Shown here piece by piece: positions 3,340-41,892 of a stretch of 64,000 bases of DNA. Location of the stretch: positions 6,244-70,243 of the forward strand of contig CAWJIL010000009.1 in the NCBI GenBank assembly GCA_963842925.1. Direction: 5' to 3'. A program made the translations under genes and the position numbers. The stretch's first letter is position 1. Every line of letters starts with the position of its first letter. The notes beneath the pieces were generated by a model that was given only the letters and a program-made list of their open reading frames with translations, searched no databases and was not told the origin of the DNA. Origin of the DNA: an uncultured delta proteobacterium (GTDB lineage Bacteria > Desulfobacterota > Desulfobacteria > Desulfobacterales > B30-G6).

Positions 3340-3376
3340 AATAAAATCCTGTTAAAAAAATCGCACCACAATACAG

Positions 3377-3526
3377 ACGATTTCGCAAAAAATCAGAATT
3401 AGACGGTTTCGTAAAAAGTTCAAATTCAAGGCGTGCAAGTTTTGTAATCATGAGGCGTACTTATCGTACGTTGAATGACTACGAAATGCAGCACAACACA
3501 GAAGTTGGAATTTTTACGGGACCGTC
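3377..3526 (+). repeat. RepC long imperfect hairpin, copy 1
   Basis: gacggtttcgtaaaaag...tttttacgggaccgtc. Near-identical copies at 34003-34150 (+) and 41719-41868 (-). Confidence 0.85.
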
Positions 3527-3595
3527 AATACTGAGAACAAAAAAAAATCACTGCCATGCCGGGTGATAATTTTTAAAAATTCTATATGTCAGCTA

Positions 3596-4393: not shown

Positions 4394-5748
4394 AGATCGA
4401 GCTATCCAAAGACCTGAAGCTTTCCGATATCCCCGAACCCATCAAAGCTGAACTCATCCGCAAACTGACCATACCCAACCCCAAATATCTTGAAAACGCC
4501 AGAATGGGTAGATGGAACAGAAACGTTCCCAAAGTGCTTCGCTTTTTCCACCGCTACAAAGAGACCTTATGGATTCCCCGGGGATACCTCCGGCAGCTAA
4601 TCATCCTGTGCCGGCATCACCAGATTCCATACCAGATGGAAGATCACAGACGAAAACTGCCATCAGCAAATTTTTCTTTCCAGGGTGAATTGAAATCCTT
4701 TCAGACAAAGGCCGTCGATAAAATGCTGTCCCGGGACTTCGGGACCCTGAATTCACCCACCGGCAGCGGCAAGACCGTCATGGGTCTCTTTATGATCGCT
4801 CAGAGGCAGCAGCCAGCCCTGGTGGTCGTTCACACAAAAGACCTGGCCTATCAGTGGATTGAACAGATTATGCATTTTTTAGGAATTCCCGAATCACAAA
4901 TTGGATTGATTGGATCCGGAAAGAAAAAGATTGGGGATGCCATTACCGTTGCACTTGTCCAATCGCTTTATCGTTGTGCAGATGTTGTATCAAAGAGGAT
5001 AGGGCACATCATCGTTGATGAGTGTCATCGGACGCCTAGCCGCACCTTCACGGACGCTGTTACCGAATTTGACGCCATATTTATGCTCGGTCTGTCGGCC
5101 ACCCCATTTCGCAGGGATAATCTTTCAAATTTGATATTCTGGCACCTGGGTGATGTGCACCATTCAGTGGATAAATCTCAGCTGATCGAGGAAGGGCACA
5201 TTCTCGAGGCTGAAATCATCGTTCGTGAAACCGAGTTTGAAGCCTACCATGACCCTGTGAACAGTTACAGCAAGATGCTACTGGAATTGACCATGAATGA
5301 CGATCGTAACCATCTCATCGCATCGGATGTGGTCAAAGAAATTCAAAGGGGTGAAGGCATCTGTCTGGTTCTTTCCGACAGAAAGAGGCATTGTGAGACA
5401 CTGCTGTCACTCCTGCGCTACAAACATCACGTGGATGCGGATCTTTTGACCGGTGATTTGTCCAACGAACAACGGCAAAACGTTCTCCGTCGTGTCAAAG
5501 CCGGCGCCGTCCCGGTCGTCATTGCCACCGGTCAGTTGGTGGGAGAAGGGTTTGACTGCCCCAACCTGACAAGCCTGTTTCTGGCAACACCCATCCGTTT
5601 CAGTGGAAGGGTTCTCCAATATCTTGGGAGGGTCCTCAGACCCGCAGAAGATAAAAACAGCGCCAGGGTCTACGACTATGTGGACGTCAAAGTCGGTGTG
5701 CTAAAGTCTGCCGCTAAACATCGGCAACAGGTGTATACAAATAAGTAA
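4375..5748 (+). CDS. superfamily-2 DEAD/DEAH-box helicase (Rad25/type III Res-like)
   Basis: Walker A SPTGSGKT, motif II DECH, motif III SATP, and a C-terminal helicase domain (ATGQLVGEGFD). Confidence 0.85.
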   Translation: MVAVTLKIELSKDLKLSDIPEPIKAELIRKLTIPNPKYLENARMGRWNRNVPKVLRFFHRYKETLWIPRGYLRQLIILCRHHQIPYQMEDHRRKLPSANFSFQGELKSFQTKAVDKMLSRDFGTLNSPTGSGKTVMGLFMIAQRQQPALVVVHTKDLAYQWIEQIMHFLGIPESQIGLIGSGKKKIGDAITVALVQSLYRCADVVSKRIGHIIVDECHRTPSRTFTDAVTEFDAIFMLGLSATPFRRDNLSNLIFWHLGDVHHSVDKSQLIEEGHILEAEIIVRETEFEAYHDPVNSYSKMLLELTMNDDRNHLIASDVVKEIQRGEGICLVLSDRKRHCETLLSLLRYKHHVDADLLTGDLSNEQRQNVLRRVKAGAVPVVIATGQLVGEGFDCPNLTSLFLATPIRFSGRVLQYLGRVLRPAEDKNSARVYDYVDVKVGVLKSAAKHRQQVYTNK

Positions 5749-5978
5749 GGGTTCGAGGGTGGCTGACGGCTATCAGCGGATAGCAGCATCACAGCATACA
5801 AAGGGTTCAAGGGTCCGAGGGTGATACAAGGGTTCGAGGGTGGCTGACAGCTATGAGCAGATAGCAGCATCATAGCTTCCCAGCATACATTCAAGGGTCC
5901 GAGGGTGATACAAGGGTTCGAGGGTGGCTGACGGCTATGAGCAGATAGCAGCATCCTAGCCTCCCAGCACACAAAGGC
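5748..5978. repeat. tandem array, about 2.8 copies of an ~82-nt unit
   Basis: Units start at about 5748, 5829 and 5913 (aagggttcgagggtggctgacRgctatSagcRgatagcagcatc...). The array fills the whole convergent gap. Confidence 0.9.
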
Positions 5979-6890
5979 TTAGTCCAATCGGACTATTCCT
6001 TCCGCTTTTGCAGCTGAAATCGCATCCCTAAACTCAGTCCTGGAAATGCTTCTTTGAAGCGCTTTGATACCCGTGACATCGCCACAGGGTCGGTATTGAG
6101 ACATGAGGTTGACATAGGTGTTGGTGGATATTTCCCGGGAGATAAACCGCATGATTTCGCGTGTATCTGCCTTTCCTTCGGGCAGCACCAGATGGCGTAT
6201 TAACAGGCCCCTCTGGGCGACACCCCTTCGATCGAAAACCAGGCCCCCCACCTGGCGGTGCATTTCTTGTATGGCTTTTCTGGCAACTTCCGGATAATCC
6301 GGCGCCTGGCAAGTTAATTCAGCGATATCCGAATCCCAGAATTTGAAATCCGGCATATAGATATCAACGACACCGTCCAAGAGCTTCAATGTTTCAACCC
6401 GGTCATAGCCCCCTGAATTGTAAACCAGTGGTATGCTCAGCCCCTGTGCACATGCCATTTCCACAGCAGACAATAGCATGGGCACGACATGAGAGGGTGT
6501 CACGAAATTGATATTGTGGCAGCCTTCATTTTGCAGTGAGAGCATCATGGATGCCAGTTGCGTGTCGCTGACTTCTTGGCCAACACCCTGGTGGCTGATA
6601 TCATCGTTTTGACAGAAGGTGCACAACAGGCTGCAGTGGGTAAAGAAGATGGTACCCGAACCGTGCATCCCGACCAGGGGTGCTTCTTCCCCAAAATGAG
6701 GGTTAAAACTGGAAACCCACGCTTTTTCGTTTGTTTTGCAGATACCTGTTTGCCGGTGATCTGTCCGGTCGATATTGCACCGGCGGGGGCACATACTGCA
6801 GGCGTGCAATCGGCGGGAAGCTTCTTTTTTACGCTGTCTGAGCAAGCCCGAGCGATTGCTTTTCATATAGGCAGGTTTAAAATCAGTCAC
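5979..6890 (-). CDS. radical SAM protein, PflX-like (activase homologue)
   Basis: CxxxCxxC motif (HCSLLCTFCQN). Size and layout are typical of the COG1313 PflX family. Confidence 0.8.
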   Translation of the reverse strand: MTDFKPAYMKSNRSGLLRQRKKEASRRLHACSMCPRRCNIDRTDHRQTGICKTNEKAWVSSFNPHFGEEAPLVGMHGSGTIFFTHCSLLCTFCQNDDISHQGVGQEVSDTQLASMMLSLQNEGCHNINFVTPSHVVPMLLSAVEMACAQGLSIPLVYNSGGYDRVETLKLLDGVVDIYMPDFKFWDSDIAELTCQAPDYPEVARKAIQEMHRQVGGLVFDRRGVAQRGLLIRHLVLPEGKADTREIMRFISREISTNTYVNLMSQYRPCGDVTGIKALQRSISRTEFRDAISAAKAEGIVRLD

Positions 6891-7026: not shown

Positions 7027-7311
7027 TTACTCTTTTAGAAGCGCAAGGGCTTTCCGAGCCACACGATCATCCAGCAGGCTGGCCATGGCGGTAATGAGCG
7101 CATCCGGTGCGCCCTTGTAGTGCATTTCTTCCATGAGGGTGTTGATCATGGAAGAACGGTGAAATGCATCTTTCTCCAAGATCGACAACAAGGTGTTTCG
7201 TATGTCCGGTGTTTCTTTGGCCACCTGTATCAGGGTGATGAAAGGTTCTTCGATGGGCGTCTGTTCAGAGCGTTTTTTTACGCGTGATATGAGTTTTTTC
7301 AAATATTTCAT
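7027..7311 (-). CDS. hypothetical protein (94 aa)
   Basis: ORF only. Co-directional with the two lipoprotein genes upstream. Confidence 0.4.
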   Translation of the reverse strand: MKYLKKLISRVKKRSEQTPIEEPFITLIQVAKETPDIRNTLLSILEKDAFHRSSMINTLMEEMHYKGAPDALITAMASLLDDRVARKALALLKE

Positions 7312-8148: not shown

Positions 8149-8184
8149 GATTGTTTCTCCTGTTTATTCTCCCAATTTACTTGG

Positions 8185-8422
8185 GAGAAAGGGTTCTAGG
8201 GGTCCAGGATTCGAGGATTCAAGTGTTTGTTTTCCGGGAAATTGCTCATCGCTTTCAGGATTCCCACAACATCCCCGAACTCCTCTCTTAATTCCTGAAG
8301 CCTCTCTTTTCCAATATAGCCCAAGTCACCGGATATCATTTTTCGGGATTCAGTAAACGCGAAAGTTGAATTATTAGGTCTGGCACGCGAAGCCTGGACC
8401 CCTGGAATCCTGGAACCCTTAT
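8185..8422. repeat. hairpin repeat whose loop carries a gene relic
   Basis: Arms agggttctaggggtccaggattcgagg (left) and cctggacccctggaatcctggaaccct (right). Confidence 0.7.
8196..8339 (-). pseudogene. C-terminal relic of a four-helix-bundle (23S rRNA IVS / Avd-like) protein gene
   Basis: The 47-aa peptide MISGDLGYIGKERLQELREEFGDVVGILKAMSNF... matches the typical last helix (DLGYI..E....L....E.....L) of that family. Confidence 0.45.
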
Positions 8423-9060: not shown

Positions 9061-9352
9061 CCCGGGTCCAAAGGACCCGGCACTGATTCAACCCTATAAG
9101 GGTTAAAGTTAACCACATTCATCGTGTGATAAAATCTAAATCCGAATATCGAAATACGAAACAAATCCAAATATCAAATGTTCAAATGTTTCAAACAGAA
9201 TGCTTAAATTGGTATCGCCAAGGTCTTGTTTTGATCATTCGAATTTGGATCATTCGGTATTGTTTAGGATTTCGAATTTCGTGCTTCGGATTTAAGTAAA
9301 AAGCACCATCTGTATAGTCAAATTTCTCTGACCTGGCCCAAAGGACCCGGTT
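9061..9352 (+). repeat. RepA composite element, full-length reference copy
   Basis: Left end cccgggtccaaaggacccggcactgattcaaccctataaggg. Two related inverted arms rich in cgaaatN words. Right end ctctgacctggcccaaaggacccggtt. Confidence 0.85.
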
Positions 9353-9400
9353 ATAAATGACCTAAGAAAATTGCCACACGATCATATCAGGAGATCATAA

Positions 9401-11585: not shown

Positions 11586-11784
11586 TTAAATCCGAAGCAC
11601 GAAATTCGAAATTCTAAACAATACCGAATGATCAAAACGAGACCTCGGAGATACAAGGTAGATTCTGCCGTACGGCAGGACGTTCTTTGTAGCTTGCTGC
11701 ACAGGCTTTTCAAGTTTTTGAACATTTGATATTTGAATTTGTTTCGTATTTCGATATTCGATATTCGAATTTATCACATTGGTG
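11586..11784 (-). repeat. RepA copy with a variant centre
   Basis: aaatccgaagcacgaaattcgaaattctaaacaataccgaatgatc ... tttgaacatttgatatttgaatttgtttcgtatttcgatattcg. Confidence 0.85.
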
Positions 11785-11789
11785 ACAAA

Positions 11790-12692
11790 ATGTTCTTCGA
11801 GGGTATCCTTAGAGTTGTGCCGGTTTCTCTTGAGCTGGGTCTGGCCTATGCACTTGTTGCACTGGGCATTGTTATCAGCTTTCGAATTCTTGCGTTTCCG
11901 GACCTGACAGTGGACGGTAGTTTTGCACTGGGGGGAGCCGTTGCCGCCCGTCTGATCGTAGAGGGCGTCTCCCCCCTTGTCAGCATTCTCATTTCCGTTG
12001 TCTGTGGATTCGCTGCCGGCTGCTGTACAGGCTTTCTCAATACCCGATTAAAAATTAACAGTCTTTTGGCCGGCATTTTAATGATGACCATGCTGTATTC
12101 CATCAATCTGCGCATCATGGGCCGGTCGAACATTCAATTGTTGACCGTCGATACCATCCTGACACCCCTGGAAAACCTGGATATCAATCGCTTTATCCCC
12201 ATTATTCTTTTCTTTCTGGTGGTATGCATTGTCATGAAAATACTCCTGGACCTTTTTCTGCACACCCAGATCGGCTTTGCCATGCGGGCCACCGGTGACA
12301 ATGAACAGATGATTCGCACGCTTGGGGTGAACACGGATAATATGACCATTCTTGGATTGGGTATTTCCAACGCTTTTGTGGCATTGTCCGGTGCCTTGGT
12401 AGCACAAGATCAAGGGTTTGCAGACATCGGCATGGGGATCGGTATGATCGTATCCGTACTGGCTGCCATCATTATCGGGGAAACCCTCATTAAGGCGAAG
12501 TCCGTGCAACGCATGACACTGGCAGCGGTTATCGGATCGATTGTTTACAAGCTGATTATCTCCATCGGCCTGCGACTGGGTCTGGCGCCCACCGATTTGA
12601 AAATGGCCACTGGAATTATGGTCATTTTAGCCCTCGGTATTCCTGCCCTGAAAAAAGGGAAGGAGAGCAAGATGCGCCTGAGAGGTATATGA
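11790..12692 (+). CDS. ABC transporter permease (COG4120 type)
   Basis: Multi-pass hydrophobic protein. The track ORF starts at 11733, but its first 19 codons lie in RepA, so the Met at 11790 is preferred. Confidence 0.75.
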   Translation: MFFEGILRVVPVSLELGLAYALVALGIVISFRILAFPDLTVDGSFALGGAVAARLIVEGVSPLVSILISVVCGFAAGCCTGFLNTRLKINSLLAGILMMTMLYSINLRIMGRSNIQLLTVDTILTPLENLDINRFIPIILFFLVVCIVMKILLDLFLHTQIGFAMRATGDNEQMIRTLGVNTDNMTILGLGISNAFVALSGALVAQDQGFADIGMGIGMIVSVLAAIIIGETLIKAKSVQRMTLAAVIGSIVYKLIISIGLRLGLAPTDLKMATGIMVILALGIPALKKGKESKMRLRGI

Positions 12693-13474: not shown

Positions 13475-13485
13475 AAACATATGAG

Positions 13486-13780
13486 CAGAGAATACAGAAG
13501 TCAGAAGCCAGGAGACAGAAGTCAGGAGACAGAAGAATTTGGATGTCGCTTCGCTCCTACAATTTTATCCGCCTTCGCAGAATACCACGGCATGCCCGTG
13601 GATGAATGCTAAAAATTAAGTTCATTGCTAGGGCGCGATGTCACCCCATGGAAAAGGCGAAGACAGGTATTTTAATCGCCCTTCTTTTTGACTGAGCCGA
13701 AGGCGAATCCATTATTCTGAATTCTGAATTCTGTCTCCTGTCTTCTGTATTCCCTTTCGAACTGTTTCAGGCAGAGCCAA
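13486..13780 (+). repeat. RepB element, long form with a nested insert
   Basis: cagaagN heptamer arm, ggatgtcgcttcgctcc, ~110-nt insert, gactgagccgaaggcgaatcc, then a ttctgaa heptamer arm. Confidence 0.85.
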
Positions 13781-13819
13781 TCGTCTCTGACCTGGCCCAA
13801 AGGACTAGGTTTTTACTAT

Positions 13820-15121: not shown

Positions 15122-15199
15122 AGGTTTTTAGACTGTTAGGCTATTAGGCTGTTAGACTGTTAGCGGCTAATATCTAATAGTCTAACAGCCTAAAAACCT
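15122..15199. repeat. word hairpin (ttag / ctaa words)
   Basis: aggtttttagactgttaggctattagg ... cctaatag..cagcctaaaaacct. Related to 19957-20065. Confidence 0.75.
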
Positions 15200-15211
15200 A
15201 AAAAGTTCCCT

Positions 15212-16749: not shown

Positions 16750-17003
16750 AATTATTCCGTCAGTTAAAACTTGGTCCATTAGGCCAGTTCAGAGATATTT
16801 GGCCATTCCGATGGTGGTCGGTACTTAATTAAATCCGAAGCACGAAATTCGAAATCCTAAACAATACCGAATGATCAAAATAACGAATGATCAAAACAAA
16901 ACCTAAGCAATACAAGTTTAAGCATTCTGCTTAAAACATTTGAGCATTTGATATTTGGATTTGTTTCGTATTTCGATATTCGGATTTAGAATTTACACAC
17001 GGT
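16750..17003 (-). repeat. RepA copy
   Basis: Contains the end module, both cgaaat-word arms and a centre like that of the 9061 copy. Confidence 0.85.
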
Positions 17004-17007: not shown

Positions 17008-18675
17008 TCACCGTACCCTGGCCTGCGCCCAAATCTTAAGTTTCTCACGGAATATCTTTGAATTGTGCCGAATATCCACCGGAAATGCTTTGTGATACAA
17101 GATGGTGTCAATTTCCTGGGTGAGGACAGACTCTTTGGCGAGTTCCAACAATTCTTCGGTAATCTTCTTTTTATTTTTCTTCTTGGGGGTCTTTTCCAGT
17201 TCAATGCAAATAACCGGTTTTTGTTTTGGGCGTGGCCGGATACCCACCAGGGCGCTTCTGAAAACCAGTGGATGGCGATTGAAGATGGCCTCGCAGGGAA
17301 TGGTAAACAGGGTCTGGGTCTCTGTTATGACGCGGTGACTTTTCCTTCCGCAAAACCAGAGTCGTTGTTCCGTGTCCATCCATCCAAGATCTCCCATACG
17401 ATGCCACAGACTGGTACTCTCTTCAATCTTGGAAAACAAGTCTTCTCTTTTTCTTTCGAAATATTGATGCGTTACCAGGTCACCCCTGACCGTGATCTCA
17501 CCAATTTCACCGTCCGGAACAATCAGATCCTCAGACCACTGGGAGATAGGCTCATCACTAATCTGGATGATACGTACCTTCAGGTCGGGCAAGACCCGAC
17601 CGACACATATGCCATATCCCTGTTCACTCAACTGACGTGTTTTGCCCAAGATCTCATGACTCCCCATGACCGAAACCGGCATGGCTTCGGTGGCACCGTA
17701 CCCGGGGAATATTTCGGTTTCAGGTTCCAGCATCTCACTGAAACGCTCCAGGTTGTCGGGCAATGCCGGCGCACCGGCCGAAATGACGCGCTTTAGTGTG
17801 GGAAGTTTGATATGTCGCGCCTGACCGTATCGTCCCACACGATCAAGAAGTGCCGGTGAGGCAAACATATTGCCTACACCATGATTCAAAATCAACTCGA
17901 TGATGCGTTCAGGATTCACCTGGGCCGGCTTGGTGGGGTCCATGTCCGGTATCACGGCTGTCATGCCAAGAGCGGGATCAAATAGCGCAAATAACGGAAA
18001 GGTCGGCAAATCGATTTCACCCGGCGTAATGTCGAATCTGTTTTTGATTTGCCGCACCTGGGCATCGAAGATGCCGTGGGTATAGACCACACCCTTTGCC
18101 GGACCTGTACTGCCGGTTGTAAAAAGAATCGCTGCTGTTTCGTCCTTCTGGGTTTTTGCAATGGGAAACGGTTTCCAGGGTGTATGACGAACATCTTCGA
18201 GTCTGGGACCTCTCCAAAACCATCGCTTTCCGATGGTTATGGCTGTGCTCAATGATTTAAAATAGCTGGGCGCACATATGCGCAGGGCATGCGCCAGGGG
18301 TAAGCCGATAAAAGCGGTCGCTTTGCTCTCTGAAAGACAGTTGAGCATCCGCTTTATCCCCATTCCCGGATCCACCATCACGGGTATTGCACCGGTTTTA
18401 AAAAGGGCAAAGGTCAGAACAAAGAATTCAAGACTTGGCTTTACCATCAATATGGTCCGGGTACCCCGTTTGATACCATGGCGAATAAGACCATGAGCCA
18501 AACAATCAGATTCCCTCTCCAGCTGTCTGAAGGTGAGGTGCGTGTAGGCAAGTCCCTTGTACCGGTTCTGCCGTAAGGGACAAATCACAGCCCTGGTGTA
18601 GGGCTGTTTACCTGCCATTTTACGAAGCAGGGATGCCACGTTCACTATTTTTTCTTCGGCGTATTCATCGGGCAT
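17008..18675 (-). CDS. oleC: OleC, AMP-dependent synthetase (beta-lactone synthetase family)
   Basis: AMP-binding motif TTGSTGPAKGV. Position between oleB and oleD. Confidence 0.8.
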   Translation of the reverse strand: MPDEYAEEKIVNVASLLRKMAGKQPYTRAVICPLRQNRYKGLAYTHLTFRQLERESDCLAHGLIRHGIKRGTRTILMVKPSLEFFVLTFALFKTGAIPVMVDPGMGIKRMLNCLSESKATAFIGLPLAHALRICAPSYFKSLSTAITIGKRWFWRGPRLEDVRHTPWKPFPIAKTQKDETAAILFTTGSTGPAKGVVYTHGIFDAQVRQIKNRFDITPGEIDLPTFPLFALFDPALGMTAVIPDMDPTKPAQVNPERIIELILNHGVGNMFASPALLDRVGRYGQARHIKLPTLKRVISAGAPALPDNLERFSEMLEPETEIFPGYGATEAMPVSVMGSHEILGKTRQLSEQGYGICVGRVLPDLKVRIIQISDEPISQWSEDLIVPDGEIGEITVRGDLVTHQYFERKREDLFSKIEESTSLWHRMGDLGWMDTEQRLWFCGRKSHRVITETQTLFTIPCEAIFNRHPLVFRSALVGIRPRPKQKPVICIELEKTPKKKNKKKITEELLELAKESVLTQEIDTILYHKAFPVDIRHNSKIFREKLKIWAQARVR

Positions 18676-18676: not shown

Positions 18677-18711
18677 GGTAAAAAATAGGTTTTAAGTTTT
18701 AGGTTTTAGGT
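18677..18711. repeat. heptamer array (aggtttt)x5
   Basis: Lies directly upstream of the oleC start. On the coding strand it reads aaaaccta repeats. Confidence 0.9.
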
Positions 18712-18738
18712 TTTAGGTTTCAGACAGCAATCGTAGAT

Positions 18739-18920
18739 ACCCGGTTCCAAATGATCCAGCACTGATTCAACTCTCTCATGTTTTGATCATTCGAATTTGG
18801 ATCATTAGGTATTGTTTAGGATTTCGAATTTCGTGCTTCGGATTTGAGTAACCACCGCCATCGGCATAGCTAAATATCTCTAACCTGGCCCAAAGGACCC
18901 GGTTTTAAATGACGGAATAA
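18739..18920 (+). repeat. RepA partial copy (lacks the first arm)
   Basis: gatcattcgaatttggatcattaggtattgtttaggatttcgaatttcgtgcttcggattt ... ctctaacctggcccaaaggacccggtt. Confidence 0.85.
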
Positions 18921-18996
18921 ACAAAGCGCTTTCAACAGCTTATGGCTTATGGCTTACAGCTCAATGTTTTTATATTTAATTTCTGTAAGTTACCCC

Positions 18997-19914
18997 TCAA
19001 TCGCTCAATCTGTCTTCTAACATGAATTTACGGATATGGTCAATAACCGTTTCTGCTGCATCCTCCAGGACATAATGGCCGGCATCCTCAAAGGTGTGCA
19101 CCCGGGCGTCTGGAAATCGATGACGCCATTCATCGAGATAGGCCCTGGTAAAGACAAAATCTTTCATGCCCCAACAGATAAGCATGGGCAGGTCTCGCAG
19201 ACGATGTAAATCGTTCTGGACCGTTTTCACGGTCTCAAAACTCGGATCGCCTGGTTTGAGGGGGATGTCTTCTACAAATTTGAGGGTGGCAATGCGATTC
19301 TGCCAACTATTGTAAGGCGCCAATAGCCCTGATTTCACATCGTCAGGCATGCCTTTGGCCGTTGCCATGAAAAGAGCGCTGCGTGCAAAAGCGTTGAATC
19401 CCAGAACCGCCACCTTGGCAAAGGGCTTGACATGTCGGATCAATTTCAGTCTGAGGGGCAGGCTACGGTTTTGGGGAGGAAAAAACGCCGCCGTATTGAG
19501 CAGGACAATTTTATCTATGCGAGCCAAATGCCGGAGTGCATATGCAATTCCAATCATGCCGCCCCAATCGTGGAGTACAAGTGTTATTTTCTCCTTTAAT
19601 TCCAAACGGCTGATAAAACGCTCCAAATCCTTGATCCGGCGATCAAGGGTATAGTCATATTGTTCCACAGCTGGTTTGTCTGATAAGCCACAGCCTATAT
19701 GGTCCACCGCGATGGCCTGAAAGTCTGGAGAAAGCGCTTGGATAAGTCTCCGGTAGTAAAACGACCAGGTGGGATTGCCATGCACCATGATGACAGGCGA
19801 ACCCGCCCCTTCATCCACATAGTGATATTTGAAGCCATTCACATCCAGAAAATGAGATTCAAATGGGTACAGGTGCCGGAATGGAGTAAGATCGATGGAT
19901 TTGTTTTTTACCAT
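18997..19914 (-). CDS. oleB: OleB, alpha/beta-hydrolase (haloalkane-dehalogenase-like, beta-lactone decarboxylase family)
   Basis: Nucleophile motif LVLHDWGG and C-terminal His (AGHYVLED). Position between oleA and oleC. Confidence 0.8.
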   Translation of the reverse strand: MVKNKSIDLTPFRHLYPFESHFLDVNGFKYHYVDEGAGSPVIMVHGNPTWSFYYRRLIQALSPDFQAIAVDHIGCGLSDKPAVEQYDYTLDRRIKDLERFISRLELKEKITLVLHDWGGMIGIAYALRHLARIDKIVLLNTAAFFPPQNRSLPLRLKLIRHVKPFAKVAVLGFNAFARSALFMATAKGMPDDVKSGLLAPYNSWQNRIATLKFVEDIPLKPGDPSFETVKTVQNDLHRLRDLPMLICWGMKDFVFTRAYLDEWRHRFPDARVHTFEDAGHYVLEDAAETVIDHIRKFMLEDRLSD

Positions 19915-19956
19915 GATGGCTTTCTAATTCATTCTTGCATGGATGTTAACACAAGA

Positions 19957-20065
19957 GGCTATTAGGCTGTTAGACTGTTAGGCGGCTAATAGTCTAATAG
20001 TCTAATAGCCTAAAAGCCTTCTGTATACTGTTAGGCGCCTAATAGTCTAATAGCCTAAATGCCTT
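19957..20065. repeat. word hairpin (ttag / ctaa words)
   Basis: aggctattaggctgttagactgttaggcggctaatagtctaatagtctaatagcct... Confidence 0.75.
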
Positions 20066-20072: not shown

Positions 20073-21113
20073 CTACCACTCAATCCCCAGCATCAAACAA
20101 TTCAATCCGCTACCAATACCCAGCATTCCCACCAGGTCATCTGTTTTGAAAAAATCACGCTCCACAGCGATGGCGGCGGTAATGGGCAGGGATACGGTGC
20201 CAATATTGCCCAGGTATTGAAAGGTGGTAAAATCACGCTGTCTGGGAATGCCGATGGACTTCAGGATCGTGTCCTGGTGGGTTGAGCCCACCTGGTGGCA
20301 GACCGTCTTGTCAGGCTGGTCTGCGGTAAGTGAAAGGGTTTTGCGAAATTCCCGGTAGGTCTCTATCCCCAGTGCAACGCCATGTTTCAAGACCCCCACA
20401 GAATCCGTGTTCATGACCTGTTTTCCCACGCTGGATACGCCACTGTCAGGTCCCCAGGTGCAAAGCTTATGATGTTCGGTGGCACATTGATACGCCCCCC
20501 CCAGGAGGCGGTGATTTTGATCAGACAGGGTCGCATCCGTCAGGAGTACGGCCACAGCTCCCGACCCCCCCGTCAGGGTAGCAACTGTCTGCTTGAATAC
20601 GTCCATGCTGCCGGCCGTCAGCATTCTTTGGATGGTACTGTCGACGATCTCACGTGCGGATTCACAGGACACCACAAGCCCGGCTGATATCTGCCCGAGT
20701 TCGATGGCATTCGCCACCTGAACCAGGCCATTCAGAATTCCAAGACAGGCATTGGAAACATCGTAAACCAGCGTGTCTGGCCCGAGACCCAGTCCATTGG
20801 ATACGGCACAGGCTGTGGCCGGTTCCAGGTTGTCGCGGCACACACCGCCGTACACCAGCATCTGGATTTTCTGAGGATCGATGCCTGCACCTGCAATGGA
20901 TTTTTCCCCCGCAAGAATCGCACCCTCTGCCATCTGGAATCCGGGATCCCAGAATCTTCTTTCACGAATCCCCGTGAGAGATTCCAGCTGCCCCTTTTGA
21001 AAATGAAGCGCATCGTACAACGGCGCCAGGCGTTTTTCCAGATCATCCGAACTCACCACATTGGGGGGTAGTTCGTATCCAAAGGAAGCGATGTTGACTT
21101 TTGAGTATTTCAT
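20073..21113 (-). CDS. oleA: OleA, FabH-like thiolase (head-to-head Claisen condensing enzyme)
   Basis: Active-site Cys context DVSNACLG. N-terminus LPPNVVSSDDLEKRLAPLYDAL...LESLTGIRERRFW is typical of OleA rather than FabH. Confidence 0.8.
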   Translation of the reverse strand: MKYSKVNIASFGYELPPNVVSSDDLEKRLAPLYDALHFQKGQLESLTGIRERRFWDPGFQMAEGAILAGEKSIAGAGIDPQKIQMLVYGGVCRDNLEPATACAVSNGLGLGPDTLVYDVSNACLGILNGLVQVANAIELGQISAGLVVSCESAREIVDSTIQRMLTAGSMDVFKQTVATLTGGSGAVAVLLTDATLSDQNHRLLGGAYQCATEHHKLCTWGPDSGVSSVGKQVMNTDSVGVLKHGVALGIETYREFRKTLSLTADQPDKTVCHQVGSTHQDTILKSIGIPRQRDFTTFQYLGNIGTVSLPITAAIAVERDFFKTDDLVGMLGIGSGLNCLMLGIEW

Positions 21114-21481
21114 TTTTTTTGGTGTTTGGTGTTTTGTGTTTGGTAGCTACCAGCAGCCTGCCAGTAGCTAATGGCTGTTTTCCTCTTCCCCTTTTATCTT
21201 CTTTCCTTCATTCCTTCTGTCTTTCTGTTCGTTGAGAACGTTAGGATCGTTGAGATCGTTAAGAACGTTTTTTGTTCAATCCGTCATCCCGGCCAAGTTC
21301 CACGAAGTGGAAGGCGAGCCGGGATCCAGTCTCAGCAAATAGCAAAGGGCAGCATCCTAGCTTTACTGTTGTTAAGTGTTAGGTTTTAGGTGTTAAGTAG
21401 GCCTTGAGCTGATTGCTAATAGCAGCATCCCAGCCTCCCAGCATCCTAGCTTCCTAGCATTTTCAATCTCTTCCATCGGTA
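21114..21481. repeat. 368-nt low-complexity/hairpin spacer between the megasynthase and oleA
   Basis: ggtgttt words, cgttgaga/cgttaaga words, hairpin atcccggc..gccgggat, gttagg words, agcatcc/agcctcc words. Confidence 0.7.
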
Positions 21482-28865: not shown

Positions 28866-28975
28866 TGAAAAACCGGTCCTTTGAACCAGGTCAGAGATAT
28901 TTGGCTATGCCAATGGCGGTAGTTACTTAAATCCGAAGCACGAAATTCGAAATTCGAAATTCTAAACAATATACG
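28866..28975 (-). repeat. RepA partial copy
   Basis: End module plus aaatccgaagcacgaaattcgaaattcgaaattctaaacaat. Confidence 0.8.
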
Positions 28976-29016
28976 ATTTATTCCAAACGTTTAACTCTAT
29001 GTAATTTTTAAACATT

Positions 29017-29075: not shown

Positions 29076-29269
29076 TTCATCATTCCAAACCTCCATTGCA
29101 GCGTACAATACTGATTTAGCATACGTACTATCTGGGAATTTTTCCAGGATTGCATTTTGCTTTGCTTATGGGAAACTGCCCATACCACGCCTGCCGGCAA
29201 AAAGGGTGGCTCTGACACTGCAATGCCTTGTCAGAAAACACATTCATATTTGAAAAGGAGGAACACACC

Positions 29270-29551
29270 ATGATGAGAACACAGAAATGGATGACGATTT
29301 TTATGCTTATAGCCCTGGTAATGCTTTCGAGCGGGTCTGTCTTCGCCGAGGAGCAGGGAAAAATCAATATCAACACGGCCACGGTCGAAGAACTGGCACA
29401 ACTGGACCGTGTCGGTCCCAGCTATGCAGATAAAATAGTTGCCTTTCGTCAGGAGAACGGTCCTTTTAAAGTGCCTGAGGACATCATGCTGGTAGCCGGT
29501 ATTGGTCAGAAAACCTTTGAAATCAACAAAGACAGGATCGTGGTCAAATAA
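29270..29551 (+). CDS. comEA: ComEA-like helix-hairpin-helix DNA-binding protein
   Basis: Signal/anchor segment followed by ININTATVEELAQLDRVGPSYADKIVAFRQENGPF...GIGQKTFE. RBS aggagg precedes the ATG at 29270. Confidence 0.65.
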   Translation: MMRTQKWMTIFMLIALVMLSSGSVFAEEQGKININTATVEELAQLDRVGPSYADKIVAFRQENGPFKVPEDIMLVAGIGQKTFEINKDRIVVK

Positions 29552-29571
29552 TTACAAAGAATGGTTGAAGT

Positions 29572-29664
29572 GCGACCCCGCGGGTTCCCGCCGTATCATC
29601 TCAAAGGAGTCATTTTACTGAAGGCAATTCTGTTGCCTTTCCCGCTATTCGACCCCGCGGGGTC
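29572..29664. promoter_or_regulatory. pair of GC-rich palindromes flanking a small hairpin
   Basis: acccgcgggt (within 29572-29587) and gaccccgcggggtc (29651-29664). Hairpin aaggcaa-ttctg-ttgcctt at 29621-29639. Confidence 0.4.
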
Positions 29665-29699
29665 AGCTATTCAGATCAGGTAATGAAAAGGAGAGAACC

Positions 29700-30107
29700 A
29701 TGGACTATGCCTACCAACGACTGGACGTCTGGAAAAAGGCGGTCGATCTTTCCATCAAGGTCATTCAATGTATCGCGGAGCTAGCCGATGAGCTTGAAAG
29801 TCAGCGTCTCACAGAAGAAATTGAAATGAGTGCCGTTAATATCGCCACCAATATTGCCAAAGGCAAGGCCTGTTTGTCGGAGGAGGATTTTATTTACTAC
29901 CTGTTTTTATCCAAAAGATCCCTATACGAAACCATGACACTGTTAGAAATTCTCAAAGCGAAGCAACTGATTACAGACGAGTGCTACACAGAAATAGAAA
30001 CAAAAGGTAAGAACATCACGACCATGCTGATCGAATTTATCCGTACGGTCAAAGATACCAACAGCCCCTATCAGGCAGAAAACTATCAGGCGGCTGTTAA
30101 GACTTAA
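29700..30107 (+). CDS. four-helix-bundle protein (23S rRNA IVS / Avd-like family), copy 1
   Basis: N-terminal YQRLDVWKKAVDL motif. Size and helical pattern typical of the family. Confidence 0.75.
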   Translation: MDYAYQRLDVWKKAVDLSIKVIQCIAELADELESQRLTEEIEMSAVNIATNIAKGKACLSEEDFIYYLFLSKRSLYETMTLLEILKAKQLITDECYTEIETKGKNITTMLIEFIRTVKDTNSPYQAENYQAAVKT

Positions 30108-30154
30108 CCAGAAGCCTATTTTGGTTTTAAAGCTAAATTCGAATTGAAGTAAAA

Positions 30155-30305
30155 AGCCAACAAGCCAAAGTAAAAACCAGATTTTGTTCCAAGGTCAAGG
30201 CGGAGTCGAATTTCAATCCGCAGGAATACTATCGTATTTTGAGGAATTGAAATGAGATTCCAACATAGAGATTGGGACAAAAGATATTTTTAATTGGCTT
30301 GTTTA
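30155..30305 (+). repeat. RepD long imperfect hairpin, copy 2
   Basis: Core 30181-30275 matches 745-838. The outer stem differs (agccaacaagcc / ggcttgttt). Confidence 0.8.
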
Positions 30306-30318
30306 AAGGAGGGAAGAG

Positions 30319-30708
30319 ATGACCTACATCTATGAAAAACTCGATGTATGGCAAAAAGCCATGCAATTTGCCGGGGATGTGATTGCATCCATCTCGATGA
30401 TAAGCAGCAAAGACCACCATCAAGAGGTGTTACAGAAAACAGAAGGCAGTGCAGCCGGCATTGCCGGTGCCATTGCCATGGGAAAATCCTACAGTTCAAA
30501 ACACGACTTTGCCAGACATCTGTATCAATCCAGGGGCGCCTTGTATCAAACCATGACCCTCCTGGAACTGTTGAAACGCAAGCGCATAATACCGGAAGAT
30601 ACCTTTGCTGATTTTGACACCAGGGCCAACCAACTGACCGCCATGTTGACCGCCCTGATCAAGTCGATCTACACACCCAAAACAGAAAATGGCAAAAAAG
30701 CATCCTAG
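30319..30708 (+). CDS. four-helix-bundle protein (23S rRNA IVS / Avd-like family), copy 2
   Basis: YEKLDVWQKAMQFAGDV motif. Paralogous to copy 1. Confidence 0.75.
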   Translation: MTYIYEKLDVWQKAMQFAGDVIASISMISSKDHHQEVLQKTEGSAAGIAGAIAMGKSYSSKHDFARHLYQSRGALYQTMTLLELLKRKRIIPEDTFADFDTRANQLTAMLTALIKSIYTPKTENGKKAS

Positions 30709-31351
30709 CCGCCGGGCTCCTATAATCAAGCCGAAGATTCTTGTGGATTACAGGGAAAAGAATTCTGGGCTTCCAAGTCTTCTGGTTGATGCAGGATTTG
30801 ACGTGGTTATAGTCAAACTGCCTTATTGTGACTACATTATTAACCATGGCATATCCATCGAAAGAAAGACCGGCAGGGATTTCGTTGTTTCAATTATAGA
30901 TGGAAGGCTGTTCGAACAAGCCAGGAAGATAAAACAATTCCTCCCTCGCCCCTTGTATCTTGTTGAGGGAAATCCATTGAATTTCAAGATCAATATTTCG
31001 AGGGATGCGGTCCTGGGAGCAGTTGTTTCTCTTCAAGCCATTTGGCAGATACCAATGATTCTTTCGGAAGATGTTGAGCAGTCATGTCACGTCATCAGTA
31101 TGATTTTCCATCAGTCCAGAAAATTACCAACTCTTGTTGAAATGAGACATGGGTATCGCCCAAAAAAATTGAGAAGTAGAAAGTTGCATCTACTTCAAGG
31201 ATTGCCGCAGGTTGGGCCTCAGCTCGCCAAACGATTACTGGATCATTTCAAATCCGTACAAAACGCTTTGAACGCAAGTGAAAAGGATCTGTTAAAGGTC
31301 CATGGGATTGGAAAAAAGAAAGCCATACTGATTAAAAAAGTGTTGACTTGA
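30689..31351 (+). CDS. ERCC4/XPF-type nuclease with a C-terminal (HhH)2 domain
   Basis: VDYRE, CDYII and ISIERKTGRDFVVSIIDGRLFEQ motifs, then LQGLPQVGPQLAKRLL...VHGIGKKKA. 20-nt overlap with the preceding gene. Confidence 0.75.
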   Translation: MAKKHPSRRAPIIKPKILVDYREKNSGLPSLLVDAGFDVVIVKLPYCDYIINHGISIERKTGRDFVVSIIDGRLFEQARKIKQFLPRPLYLVEGNPLNFKINISRDAVLGAVVSLQAIWQIPMILSEDVEQSCHVISMIFHQSRKLPTLVEMRHGYRPKKLRSRKLHLLQGLPQVGPQLAKRLLDHFKSVQNALNASEKDLLKVHGIGKKKAILIKKVLT

Positions 31352-32376: not shown

Positions 32377-32535
32377 ACCCGGGTCCAAAGGGCCAGGCAC
32401 TGATTCAACCCTATAAGGGATTAATATTATAAATATTCAGCGTGTGATAAATTCTAAATCCGAATATCGAAATACGAAACAAACCCAAATATCTCTGACC
32501 TGGCCCAAAGGACCAGGTTTTATATGACGAAATAA
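32377..32535 (+). repeat. RepA partial copy (lacks the second arm)
   Basis: Left end and first arm are fused directly to the end module ctctgacctggcccaaaggaccagg. Confidence 0.85.
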
Positions 32536-32549
32536 AAGATAGAGGGCCT

Positions 32550-33797: not shown

Positions 33798-33954
33798 AGG
33801 TGCTTGAAAAAGATACGAGACTGGGAAAAAAAGAACGCCCAACATCGAATTTTGAATGGGTTTAAATGAAGAAACAGAAATTAGCTCATAACTGATAGCT
33901 CATAGGACTTGACCAGCTAACAACTACCAACTATCAGCTGATAGTGTGTTTTCA

Positions 33955-33996
33955 TTCGATGTTGGACGTTCGATGTTCGATGTTCGACGTTCATTT
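33955..33996. repeat. heptamer array (ttcgatg)x6
   Basis: ttcgatg ttggacg ttcgatg ttcgatg ttcgacg ttcattt. Confidence 0.9.
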
Positions 33997-34002
33997 TTTG
34001 AT

Positions 34003-34150
34003 GAACTCGTAAAAAGTCAAATTTAGACGGTTTTGTAAAAAGTTCAAATTCAAGGCGTGCAAATTTTGCTATCATGAGGCGTACTTACTGTACGTTGAAT
34101 GATGGCTAAATGCAGCACAACGCCGAAGTTGGGCTTTTTACGAAACCGTC
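34003..34150 (+). repeat. RepC copy 2
   Basis: See 3377-3526. It overlaps the spurious N-terminal extension of the glmM track ORF. Confidence 0.85.
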
Positions 34151-34175
34151 ATCTTTTAATCAGAGGATATTGTTT

Positions 34176-35540: not shown

Positions 35541-35572
35541 AAAACCCTGTGTAAAAATGAACACAGGGTTTT
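35541..35572 (+). terminator. intrinsic terminator
   Basis: aaaaccctgtgt-aaaaatga-acacagggtttt, immediately after the glmM stop. Confidence 0.7.
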
Positions 35573-35602
35573 AATATTAAGGGTCATAAGGGGCTTCATC
35601 AC

Positions 35603-35885
35603 AAAACATATGAGCCAGAGAAGACAGAAGTCAGAATACAGAAGTCAGGAGACAGAAGAACTTGGATGTCGCTTCGCTCCTACAAAATTTTATACCGCTT
35701 GTCATAATAATCTTCTGAAAATAAGATGGCGGTATAAGGGGTTGTAGCAGAAAAACGATCATCAATCGGAACATTTTTCTGACAAACCCTATATCTTCTT
35801 TTTGACTGAGCCGAAGGTGAATCCATTATTCTGAATTCTGAATTCTGAATTCTGACTCCTGGATTCCCTTTAGAACTGTTTCAAA
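35603..35885 (+). repeat. RepB element, long form with a different nested insert
   Basis: Same flanks as 13486-13780 but an unrelated ~110-nt centre. Confidence 0.85.
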
Positions 35886-35899: not shown

Positions 35900-36601
35900 T
35901 TATCTGCGGTCGCCTAAAATTCTCAGCAGCATCAAAAACAGATTGATAAAATCAAGATAGAGGGTCAAAGCACCCATAATAGCGCCTTTTCTGACCACGG
36001 CTGCTCCAACATCGGCCGGTTGCGTAAGGGCCATTGTTTTCAGTTTCTGGGTGTCATAAGCCGTCAAGCCTACGAAGACCAATACCCCGACATAGCTTAT
36101 AATCATACTCATGGCGGAACTTTTAACAAAGATGTTCACCACGGAAGCAATTATAATTCCAATGAGCCCCATGGTCATGAAGCCTCCCATGGATGTCAAA
36201 TCCCGTTTAGTGGTCATACCATAAACGCTGAAAGCGGCAAATGTGGCTGCACAAATGAAAAAGGTGGATGTAATTGAAGAAGCCGTATATATAAGGAAAA
36301 TGACGGAAAGGGTGGCACCGTTGAGTGCGGCATACAGGACAAAAAGTGCCGTTGCCGTGGAAGCCTGAATTTTTTGAACCCGGGCACTCAGAAAAAAGAC
36401 AAGTCCCAGTTCACCGATAATGAGGCCATAGAATATGATTCGATTGCCGAATATCACCTGTTGTATGGAAGGTGTGTTGGCTATATAATAGGCCACAAAC
36501 CCGGTCAGGGCAAGCCCTATGGCCATCCAGTTATACACACTTCGAATAAAGGTGTTTACCTGAACCTGGGCCTGGGTTTTTGACAATGCAACTGGCTGCA
36601 T
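35900..36601 (-). CDS. BAX inhibitor-1/YccA-family membrane protein
   Basis: Seven hydrophobic helices. Family-typical N-terminal FIRSVYNWMAIGLALTG and C-terminal LYLDFINLFLMLLRILG. Confidence 0.85.
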   Translation of the reverse strand: MQPVALSKTQAQVQVNTFIRSVYNWMAIGLALTGFVAYYIANTPSIQQVIFGNRIIFYGLIIGELGLVFFLSARVQKIQASTATALFVLYAALNGATLSVIFLIYTASSITSTFFICAATFAAFSVYGMTTKRDLTSMGGFMTMGLIGIIIASVVNIFVKSSAMSMIISYVGVLVFVGLTAYDTQKLKTMALTQPADVGAAVVRKGAIMGALTLYLDFINLFLMLLRILGDRR

Positions 36602-36616
36602 GTTATCCTCCTGTTA

Positions 36617-36651
36617 TTGTGTTTTGTGTTTTGTGTTTTGTGTTTTGTGTG
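36617..36651. repeat. heptamer array (ttgtgtt)x5
   Basis: Lies immediately upstream of the RBS of the BI-1 gene. Reads cacaaaa repeats on the coding strand. Confidence 0.9.
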
Positions 36652-36730: not shown

Positions 36731-37024
36731 ATGAAACCAGAACAAATATACCACGCCTTAATTGAACTGGCTGATAAATTCAAGATTTCTGTGTCCGAAC
36801 AGAATCTGCAGAAAACAATTGGCAAAGCCAAATCCGGTTTCTGCATCGTGAAAGACCAGAAGCGCTTTATCATTGACAAACACCTGACCCTTCATAAAAA
36901 GATTGATGTTTTAGGGGCCTTTCTCAGTACACAGCCGCATGAGAACATGTACATCATGCCCACGCTGAGGGAAGTGCTGTATAAATATAGGGTTCCAGGG
37001 TCCAAGGGTGATACAAGGGTTTGA
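36731..37024 (+). CDS. hypothetical protein (97 aa)
   Basis: ORF only. The last ~12 codons run into a repeat. Confidence 0.4.
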   Translation: MKPEQIYHALIELADKFKISVSEQNLQKTIGKAKSGFCIVKDQKRFIIDKHLTLHKKIDVLGAFLSTQPHENMYIMPTLREVLYKYRVPGSKGDTRV

Positions 37025-37090
37025 GGGTAGCTGACGGATATGAGCGTGCGGCAGCCTCCAAGCATTCAAAGGCGGGTTCGAGGGTTCCAG
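36989..37090. repeat. single copy related to the 5748-5978 tandem unit
   Basis: gggtccaagggtgatacaagggtttgagggtagctgacggatatgagc... Confidence 0.75.
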
Positions 37091-38558: not shown

Positions 38559-38615
38559 AAAACACGAAAACCATCATGGTCTTTTTCGTGGTTTCGTACT
38601 TTCGTGATTTCGTGA
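38537..38615. repeat. word hairpin (cacgaaa / tttcgtg words)
   Basis: atcacgaaaacacgaaatttgaaaaacacgaaaacc ... ggtctttttcgtggtttcgtactttcgtgatttcgtgat. Overlaps the xseA stop. Confidence 0.8.
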
Positions 38616-38659
38616 TAATATGTCTTGACCTTTAACAATAAAAAACAGGAATCCACAAT

Positions 38660-41714: not shown

Positions 41715-41718
41715 GCTT

Positions 41719-41868: not shown

Positions 41869-41892
41869 CAAGCTTTAAGCTGTAAGCTGCAT

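Follow-up and report, generated by a model that had tools for sequence, protein, structure and literature searches.

Tandem 7-8-nt word arrays in fold-back elements and gene leaders of a Desulfobacterales chromosome segment

The flagged locus and the spacer periodicity

The window analyzed here is a 64-kb stretch of a Desulfobacterales chromosome (contig CAWJIL010000009.1) that carries ordinary chromosomal genes (xseA-xseB-ispA-dxs-tlyA-fusA, an ABC transporter, and a large polyketide/fatty-acid-synthase-like gene) and, in the spacers between them, tandem arrays of 7- and 8-nt words, many of which form the two arms of small dispersed fold-back elements. The protein encoded by dxs (39834-41714) is 94%, 89%, and 88% identical to those of three Desulfobacterales metagenome-assembled genomes and about 70% identical to those of Desulfosarcina and Desulfonema. 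The comparison set consisted of 80 related dxs loci plus further contigs, labelled with L-numbers; parts of the window share synteny with L001, L002, L003, L084, and L085, and the array census covered 89 sequences.

The array that drew attention to the window lies at 13483-13538 (+ strand) and consists of about eight words of the type CAG[A/G]A[G/T][A/T/C], with positions 3 and 5 invariant and variation mostly at positions 6 and 7 and less at 1, 2, and 4. It is the left arm of the first copy of a fold-back family, F1, and pairs with the other arm (pairs I1 and I3; 42 nt, 81% complementary, 172 nt apart). Next to it stands core-L, GGATGTCGCTTCGCTCCTACAA (13541-13562, +), present in four copies in the window against zero expected and including GCTTCGC, which complements the d(GCGAAGC) mini-hairpin motif. 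The loop holds a nested insert, A (13563-13680, +), 94% identical to positions 1927-2023 of L084, and the L084 copy lies outside any F1 element, which marks the insert as a dispersed module. Core-R (CTTCTTTTTGACTGAGCCGAAGGCGAATCC) and then the right arm, with ATTCTGA, TGTCTCC, and TGTCTTC words (repeat families D14 and D19), occupy 13681-13755 (+), and an outer flank with a CTCTGACCTGGCCCAAAGGACYAGG hairpin module (13756-13812, +; repeat family D6) stops just before an ATG at 13820.

The general F1 layout begins with CATATGAGC(C)AGAGAA, the word array (CAG[A/G]A[G/T][A/T/C])n, and core-L, and continues through a loop with or without a nested insert to a core-R of the form ...GAGCCGAAGGCGAATCC, complementary words, GGATTCCCTTTCGAACTGTTTCA, and often a hairpin, CTGACCTGGCCCAAAGGACCAGG. 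Copy 2 (35605-35885, +; families D8 and D14 at 91-93% identity; pair I2) has a different nested insert, B, so that the loops of copies 1 and 2 hold different inserts of about 100 nt, each of which is present alone elsewhere. Insert B (about 105 nt; 35686-35794 in the window) stands alone at 5836-5939 of L001, in the orthologous spacer and in opposite orientation, possibly because of inversion between fold-back arms or of independent insertion. Copy 3 (42745-42885, - strand) is minimal, insert-free, and oppositely oriented, with RNA-fold z-scores of -3.5 and -3.9 on the two strands; copy 4 (50697-50790, +) has lost its right half, the complete element being present in the near-identical strain contig L085. 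An arms-only hairpin of F1-type words lies at 61257-61368 (+; pairs I7, I9, and I11; fold z = -8.3 and -10.0). A dispersed hairpin module, CTCTGACCTGGCCCAAAGGACCMGGTT, occurs at 9328, 13787, 18880, and 32495 on the plus strand and at 42705, ~16770, and ~28870 on the minus strand, and also in L001, L007, L065, and L084.

An earlier note on the window, made from its letters alone, had read exact 7- or 8-nt phasing in seven spacer arrays and held that this register recurs across the window while the words change. Autocorrelation bears this out for non-coding DNA. About 50 genes were called crudely, leaving 10.6 kb of spacer DNA, and lag identity was compared with that of 200 dinucleotide-preserving shuffles of the intergenic DNA. 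Lag-7 identity in the spacers was 0.312 versus 0.263 ± 0.004 in the shuffles (z = 11.6), with further excesses at lag 8 (z = 4.9) and at lags 14 and 21 (z = 5.6-5.7), and the coding DNA of the window showed period 3 only. The refuting condition set in the note, spacers no richer in period 7/8 than their shuffles, therefore does not hold. Tandem Repeats Finder returned about 40 arrays of period 7 or 8, and a strict tandem detector returned seven of period 7 and three of period 8, every one intergenic, and zero arrays of period 5, 6, or 9-15 in the window; Markov-shuffled window sequence gave it zero arrays for periods 6-15. Word arrays make up 11.3% of intergenic bases, with lag-7 identity of 0.61 inside them versus 0.283 elsewhere, and therefore account for most of the intergenic signal: the period-7 power sits largely in the repeats.

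All seven arrays exist in the phase assigned to them, one of them displaced by 9 nt. Lag-7 self-identity is 0.69 for 13483-13538, 0.74 for 33955-33996, 0.96 for 36617-36651, and 0.73 for 41893-41940; at lag 8 the values are 0.81 (15126-15160) and 0.83 (38585-38615). At 18677-18711 lag 7 gives 0.68, the true array, (TAGGTTT)x5, lying at 18686-18720. The remaining lags of these arrays range from about 0.15 to 0.4, except for 36617-36651, which reaches 0.70-0.73 at lags 5, 9, and 12. The heptamer words read into a 'RepA' arm (9144-9178) do give a lag-7 signal, which is weak (0.54; shuffle P ~0.04). The further claim that each array faces an imperfect complement on a second arm holds for five of the seven, with match scores of 13-22 versus a shuffled maximum of about 10-12, and fails for the arrays at 18686 and 36612, where the same scoring found no reverse-complement arm and which are direct repeats at start codons. 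The 7-8-nt register is a mode rather than a rule: a 9-mer array is also present at 21229-21269, and some octamer words resemble a heptamer plus one base (CTGTTAGG versus TGTTAGG).

The same register was found well outside the window. The spacers of many of the 80 related dxs loci show a lag-7 excess, which peaks in the complete Desulfonema magnum genome (0.379 vs a 0.26 baseline), L028, and L012 and is missing from Desulfosarcina variabilis and several other related dxs loci; strict arrays over the 80 loci numbered 50 of period 7, 10 of period 8, one of period 9, and none of periods 10-11. The census returned 98 arrays, of which 49 had a complementary partner within 350 nt, 41 had none, and eight lay inside coding sequence. 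The cultivable D. magnum (L040) has very long heptamer arrays at 5739-6133, 11942-12032, and 18693-19045, namely (AAATTTG)x14 opposite (TTTCCAGTCTCAAA)x9.6 as a fold-back, (AATCACA)x13, and (CTTGAAA)x ~49, and L081, an 11-kb sediment metagenome contig from the priA/upp region, holds 14 heptamer arrays of about eight different words. Chance or faulty assembly as the source of the arrays is thus a negligible prospect, given the excess over shuffles, the empty Markov controls, the recurrence of the same families in independent assemblies that include the complete D. magnum genome, and the retention of one hairpin at the orthologous position in another genome, which together exclude a pattern made by assembly only.

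Fold-back families, their shared core, and their turnover

The hairpins built from these words had been described as unrelated. Most are instead copies of a few dispersed families, as seen from presence and absence, replacement, and nesting, from two 8-bp duplications in relatives, and from several word families that share one core. The F1 family, with CAGAAGA-type words, accounts for 13483, 35605, 42745 (-), 50697, and 61257. The F3 family, with CATCGAA/TTCGATG words, is represented by a fold-back at 33826-33999 (+; pair I12), in which a CCCAACATCGAATTTTGAA arm, a 112-nt loop, and a (TTCGATG/TTGGACG)x6 arm that includes 33955-33996 follow one another, and by a remnant right arm at 46373-46395 (+). 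The full hairpin stands at the orthologous site of L084, and the right arm is kept in L001 and L002; common to four genomes and decaying by deletion in the window, it identifies some of the elements as old. F3 occurs also in L001, L002, L008, L028, L034, L084, and L086.

Searching metagenome contigs for the 22-nt core recovered eight, two of them with F1 words. In the rest the core is preceded by other heptamers (GACGAAT/GACTAAT, GAAGAAT, and GAAGATT), with complementary arrays on the far side, and in a relaxed search the core also followed F3 arrays in L008, L028, L034, and L086. Fourteen of 16 copies of the core ATGTCGCTTCGCTCC follow a period-7 array (lag 7 = 0.5-0.8), and the words beside it change by lineage, from CAGAAGA to GAACATC, GACGAAT, and GAAGATT. 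As a negative control, 17 matches to the core 16-mer in viral contigs proved to be chance matches with no period-7 flanks (lag 7 = 0.10-0.44). Because most core copies carry such arrays and the viral chance matches carry none, F1, F3, and the other core-bearing elements are one superfamily in which the core is fixed, the period is kept, and the word is lineage-specific. The core module occurs singly, as in F3 copies, or as an inverted pair, as in F1, L081, and L087. A far-reaching and decidedly improbable extension would have the arrays of this ~22-nt core superfamily (GGATGTCGCTTCGCTCCTWCAA) written and rewritten in each lineage, both arms in concert, by enzymes dedicated to the task (a transposase, nuclease, or polymerase that moves in fixed steps of 7 nt), with the same kind of system behind the heptamer repeats of cyanobacteria, Beggiatoaceae, and Bacteroidetes, possibly via horizontal transfer among sediment and mat bacteria.

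Three families, F4, F5, and F6, use octamer words. An F4 hairpin at 15122-15201 (+; I10 and I13; z = -7.9), in which TTAGRCTG pairs with CTAAYAGY words, fills the spacer between convergent genes, and a second F4 locus at 19956-20064 (+; pair I14; families D10 and D17; z = -10.7) has two hairpins. An F5 hairpin at 38537-38616 (+; I5; z = -6.5) lies between xseA and xseB and pairs CACGAAAA words with TTTCGTGN words across a 12-nt loop; the family is found also in L001, L008, and L012. In both the window and L001 the final codons of xseA and its stop codon come from the F5 left arm (38537-38558); in L002, which lacks the hairpin, the xseA product ends in a different C-terminus. The spacer downstream of fusA holds, adjoining an AGCTTTA heptamer array, a truncated second copy of the xseB 5′ end (27 codons followed by a stop) at 45386-45469, 94% identical over 85 nt to 38660-38887.

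Such hairpins could act in RNA as 3′-end stabilizers, processing sites, terminators, or translational regulators whose pairing is under selection. Fold prediction gives very stable structures (z = -3.5 to -10.7), many elements sit just past stop codons or within operons, as between xseA and xseB, and one compensatory change, T:A to A:T, separates the window from L001. Such a role is nonetheless improbable, as both strands fold about equally, with fold energies that do not consistently favor the transcribed one, copies stand in both gene-relative orientations, and the arm mismatches are mostly non-wobble and show no wobble asymmetry (12 G:T vs 7 A:C). The word hairpins lack the form of an intrinsic terminator (a G+C-rich hairpin and a T run at a gene 3′ end), and classical intrinsic terminators occur separately, beside the elements, at 35541-35575 and 45223-45271. 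No Rfam family matched at the gathering score, a further scan gave a chance miRNA match only (E = 0.08), and the RNA scan found no tRNA or tmRNA. Presence, absence, and replacement at orthologous sites speak against a locus-specific RNA role in particular. Because both strands fold, both orientations occur, strand asymmetry is lacking, and terminators are separate, DNA-level elements are favored.

The F6 fold-back at 8160-8420 (+; I6, I19, and I21) has an outer hairpin, TTCTCCCAATTTACTTGGGAGAA, an (AGGRTTCN)x4 array, a 158-nt loop, and a complementary array, and its outer hairpin occurs alone at ~28687. GGGTTC-type 8-mers related to F6 lie at 2002-2032 and within an 84-nt tandem repeat at 5747-5973 and 36993. 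The tandem repeat at 5747-5973 (2.7 copies) is built of AAGGGTTC/GAGGGTG and CAGCATC-type short words, and the single related 84-nt unit at 36993-37076 follows a small open reading frame (36731-37024) and is conserved in L001 (~7065-7170). The 'RepA' composite at 9125-9371 (+; families D1, D4, D5, D11, and D20; I23 and I24), with terminal arms TAAATCCGAA-NNN-CGAAAT-N-CGAAA, is one of seven in all, the others lying at 11586-11778, 16752-16995, 18742-18921, 28927-28978, 32418-32536, and 45566-45722, and L001 has a 'RepA' copy at a site occupied in the window by different elements.

Orthologous sites differ in what they hold. The xseA/xseB spacer has the CACGAAAA hairpin in the window and L001, is empty in L002, and has a TTAGGCTG-type hairpin in L003; the 50.7-kb spacer is occupied by F1 in the window, by an F3 arm in L001, and by F3 and F6 hairpins in L002. 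The site past the fusA stop codon is empty in the window (CAAGAATAAATTCAC), is filled in L001 by an F6 fold-back with terminal inverted repeats GGWTCTTCTCCCAATTAGTTGGGAGAA and an 8-bp duplication, GAATAAAT, on both sides, and is filled in L084 by an F1 composite with an 8-bp duplication, AGARTAAA. These two 8-bp target duplications are independent and fall at a single hot spot. Such duplications, added one after another, were considered as a source of the words and rejected for the fold-backs, since target duplications are direct repeats and the arms are inverted.

The arrays themselves change as well. F1 copies differ in word number (for example, two or three CAGAATT words), and super-periods of 14 and 21 nt show identity above that of the 7-nt period, with 13502-13535 reaching 95% at period 14. 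Over 5.2 kb the near-identical strain contig L085 differs from the window by substitution at about 1.3% of positions; F1 copy 4 shows 10 substitutions within 94 nt (Fisher P = 8e-7), about eightfold the divergence of its flanks, besides an indel of 112 nt. At the locus shared by L081 and L087 both arms have shifted together, L087 being rich in GACGAAT/ATTCGTC words and L081 in GACTAAT/ATTAGTC and ATTATTC words. Such varying word numbers, super-periods, strain divergence, and concerted arm shifts are what exchange of the slipped-strand or unequal type leaves behind, together with conversion between inverted arms. The slippage part of the common generating mechanism proposed in the earlier note is therefore supported, by copy number that varies between copies and orthologues, by the super-periods, and by the strain variability; between close relatives, as compared in L001, L002, and L085, word copy number or sequence varies.

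Arrays at gene starts and neighboring repeats

Four arrays in the window (18686, 21118, 36612, and 60328) have no partner and lie 4-57 nt upstream of the starts of minus-strand genes. The array at 18686-18720 (-) reads (AAACCTA)x5 in mRNA sense; it is a direct array that lacks a complementary arm and lies 13 nt upstream of where the gene at 17008-18675 starts. That at 21118-21144 (-), (CCAAACA)x4, is 4 nt upstream of the start of the gene at 20073-21113; and that at 36612-36650 (-), (CAAAACA)x5, directly precedes the Shine-Dalgarno sequence and ATG of the gene at 35900-36601, with orthologous (TGTTTTG)n arrays that are shorter and decayed in L001 and L002. A degenerate array of the GTTTTAG type at 60328-60357 (-) is about 57 nt upstream of the start of the gene at 58238-60271. 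In the wider census, 10 of the 41 unpartnered arrays abut a start codon, with an mRNA-sense composition of 44% A and 13% G. An origin of unpartnered arrays by a polymerase that stalls at a stable hairpin and stutters was rejected, as their flanks are no more structured than random spacer (P = 0.96).

These arrays bring up a common reader, a protein that would bind one word per 7-8 nt, so that arrays would be multi-site platforms and words would co-evolve with the protein; the candidates are an element-specific transposase and a host single-strand binder (ribosomal protein S1 or a cold-shock protein, for example). Several features fit such a protein, including F1 words with invariant and variable positions, a period that stays constant while words change around one conserved core, arm sequences kept across genera, and direct arrays 4-19 nt from start codons that are A-rich and G-poor in mRNA sense. 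However, a 7-bp spacing is too short for typical DNA-binding domains, at least eight unrelated words occur within 64 kb with 7-, 8-, and 9-nt units mixed, the arms of the fold-backs would be double-stranded and so unsuited to single-strand binders, and the arm mismatches fall on variable word positions. The reader is accordingly regarded as doubtful, and the search for proteins with tandem nucleic-acid-binding repeats that the earlier note had suggested came back empty: none is encoded among the window genes, nor is any other candidate protein. Precedent for one protein per 7 nt comes from Bacillus subtilis CspB on heptamer repeats, and S1, Csp, and Csr proteins have been proposed to act on TAACTGA repeats (PMC4679880).

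A near-palindromic array of AAGCTNN/GCTTANN words at 41870-41944 (+), which includes 41893-41940, runs into the ATG (~41935) of an FtsJ/S4 (tlyA-like) gene and has orthologous arrays in L001 and L002. One spacer, at 21198-21460 (no strand assigned), holds a cluster of arrays made of an 8-mer CTTCATTC, a 9-mer TCGTTAAGA x4.6, a 7-mer TGTTAGG, and an 8-mer CAGCATCC. A separate element of about 150 nt, resembling MITEs (miniature inverted-repeat transposable elements) and free of word structure, occurs at 3376-3527, 34000-34151, and 41716-41868, with terminal inverted repeats TTGACGGTTTCGTAAAAAGTCCA... and three CGTAAAAAGT motifs; compared with L001, the copy past the dxs stop has been inserted into the AAGCT word array. 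A similar motif directly follows dxs in L046, L047, and L049 and is present in 10 of the related loci, including Desulfosarcina alkanivorans and a Desulfonema genome.

Other repeats and genes in the window include a DNA-structure gene cluster at 29228-31351 (a ComEA-like helix-hairpin-helix (HhH) protein, an ERCC4/XPF-type nuclease with HhH domains, and two '23S rRNA intervening sequence' protein genes), a 120-nt repeat at 733-852 and 30172-30291, and a 90-nt direct repeat (79% identical; 53024-53113 and 55920-56009) that flanks a cNMP/CBS/DUF294 nucleotidyltransferase gene at 53261-55585.

Interpretation and relation to known repeat systems

The reading that best accommodates these observations, with a probability of roughly 0.55, is that the window holds MITE-like fold-back elements whose arms are tandem arrays of 7-8-nt words, together with heptamer repeats at start codons, that slippage and conversion shape the arrays, and that the 7-nt mode belongs to a general, unexplained heptamer bias of bacteria. 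Judged by sequence comparison, the elements are demonstrably multi-copy, shared between genera at non-orthologous sites, gained, lost, or replaced at orthologous sites, and nested. They resemble MITEs in being small, non-coding, and multi-copy, in having terminal inverted repeats (the F6 ends GGWTCTTCTCCCAATTAGTTGGGAGAA), and, in relatives, in the 8-bp duplications at filled sites in L001 and L084 versus the empty site in the window; copies stand in both orientations relative to neighboring genes. They resemble heptamer simple sequence repeats (SSRs) in having at least three head-to-tail 7-nt units, lying in non-coding DNA, being over-represented relative to other unit lengths, and varying between relatives.

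Such elements would be moved, now or recently, by a transposase encoded elsewhere in the genome, and an autonomous partner would carry GGWTCTTCTCCCAATTAGTTGGGAGAA ends, a CCTGGCCCARAGGACCAGG hairpin, or core-plus-heptamer ends. The arms would be complementary as terminal or sub-terminal inverted repeats and would be kept alike by arm-to-arm conversion, each array retaining its inherited unit length while its words expand, contract, and homogenize through slipped-strand mispairing and unequal exchange. The 7-nt mode would then stem from the unexplained bias in unit size by which, in many bacteria, heptamers are over-represented among long SSRs, and a dedicated 7-nt reader would not be required.

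Several observations weigh against this account of MITE-like elements shaped by slippage. Protein scans found no transposase gene encoded in the window, nor did the window or the related loci yield such a gene or an autonomous element whose ends match; target duplications accompany only two insertions, both in relatives and neither in a window copy; and slippage alone fails to explain the dominance of 7-8-nt units with 5, 6, and 9-11 absent. Words with fixed and variable positions and whole arm sequences conserved across genera suggest constraint over neutral drift. Between the window and L001 the hairpin of the xseA/xseB spacer keeps 97.5% identity, against about 86% in the flanking genes, and its only two differences are the compensatory T:A to A:T pair, which points to selection or recent conversion. 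Because of this hairpin, the invariant F1 word positions, and the cross-genus F3 arms, some constraint on the elements is likely, whether through pairing, a binding protein, or frequent conversion. The preferred reading, a reader, and an RNA-level function are not mutually exclusive.

Intergenic heptamer repeats have been known since 1990 as short tandemly repeated repetitive heptanucleotides (STRRs) and have been used in strain typing. The Desulfobacterales, with the cultivable Desulfonema magnum among them, are another, unrelated lineage in which such repeats abound. The chief new lead is a conserved core whose two arrays hold their period and swap words in concert between lineages. Together with orthologous sites that are empty, filled, or differently filled, these findings make slippage bias, transposase sites, and an RNA-binding register testable. 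The elements amount to at least one tenth of the spacer DNA here and can supply stop codons (as for xseA), occupy 5′ leaders, break assemblies, and confuse annotation.

Eukaryotic Foldback (FB) transposons have long inverted arms of short tandem sub-repeats, variable in number, around a variable middle. Their arm anatomy is like that described here by analogy only, with no kinship implied, and they are eukaryotic and much larger. At the hmw1A and hmw2A genes of Haemophilus influenzae, copy number of upstream heptanucleotide repeats reportedly can tune expression; these are likewise 7-nt SSRs upstream of a gene, but they represent a single contingency locus with one word, in contrast with the many words spread genome-wide here. 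MITEs such as Nezha in Anabaena/Nostoc and Chunjie in Geobacter (PMC3184786) and mosaics of repetitive extragenic palindromic sequences (REP/BIME/REPIN; PMC3116915) share with the present elements a size of 80-300 nt, a non-coding and multi-copy nature, terminal inverted repeats, filled versus empty sites, target duplications, intergenic mosaics, and nesting. They differ in that the arms here are made of tandem 7-8-nt sub-repeats and in that no cognate insertion sequence or REP-associated tyrosine transposase (RAYT) gene was identified, the window having no RAYT. A REP is a lone imperfect palindrome of 20-40 nt, and REPINs are its inverted doublets. The core module, single in some elements and an inverted pair in others, may compare with these, but the arms here are tandem word arrays, and 8-bp duplications would be unexpected for RAYT/IS200-type transposition.

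The earlier note had found no described system to explain the pattern. Intergenic heptamer repeats are in fact described in cyanobacteria, Beggiatoaceae, Bacteroidetes, and Xanthomonas, with the mechanism left unexplained there (PMC4692102, PMC4679880), and a search for literature on heptamer or tandem repeats in Desulfobacterales or sulfate reducers found nothing relevant. TAACTGA direct repeats occur in Beggiatoaceae, cyanobacteria, and Bacteroidetes, with no mention of Deltaproteobacteria (MacGregor 2015, PMC4679880). They are alike in forming direct arrays a few nucleotides upstream of starts, as at 18686, 21118, 36612, and 41892 of the window, in having other heptamer words mixed into the same spacers, and in a suspected horizontal spread; they differ in having one dominant word, inverted in 1 of 170 sets (PMC4679880), whereas many words occur here and about half are in fold-backs. 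The intergenic heptamers GGGAATC of Xanthomonas and GGGGAYT of Nostoc are over-represented, include some that are inverted, and vary extensively in length and sequence between close relatives, as do the present arrays (Rehm et al. 2015, PMC4692102), but they are G-rich and discussed as quadruplex formers, whereas most words here are rich in A/T or in purines and come from dispersed element families. Polymerase slippage has been proposed for bacterial heptamer SSRs (PMC4692102), and the excess of heptamers among long bacterial SSRs has been linked to a polymerase-footprint hypothesis (Mrazek et al. 2007, as cited in PMC4692102).

STRRs were described in Calothrix and Nostoc (Mazel et al. 1990, as cited in PMC4692102). 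STRR1 (CCCCAGT), STRR2 (TTGGTCA), and STRR3 (CAACAGT) occur in the window as two to five singletons, never in tandem, the arrays using words other than these or TAACTGA, and HIP1 (GCGATCGC) occurs 0 times in the window. A cyanobacterial origin of the window was rejected on these grounds and on the dxs neighborhood, which assigns it to Desulfobacterales. Elhai and colleagues are said to have described, in 2008, dispersed hairpin-forming elements of 21-27 nt embedded in Nostoc tandem heptamers and mini-transposons. The arrays of the window share with STRRs and these Nostoc repeats tandem 7-nt units, several words per genome, a dense non-coding distribution, and ties to small hairpin-forming dispersed modules and mini-transposons, and the embedded Nostoc repeats, as reported, are the closest parallel to the anatomy of a core with its arrays. 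The difference lies in the Desulfobacterales setting, in the presence of 8-mers too, and in the many arrays that form two fold-back arms around a conserved core.

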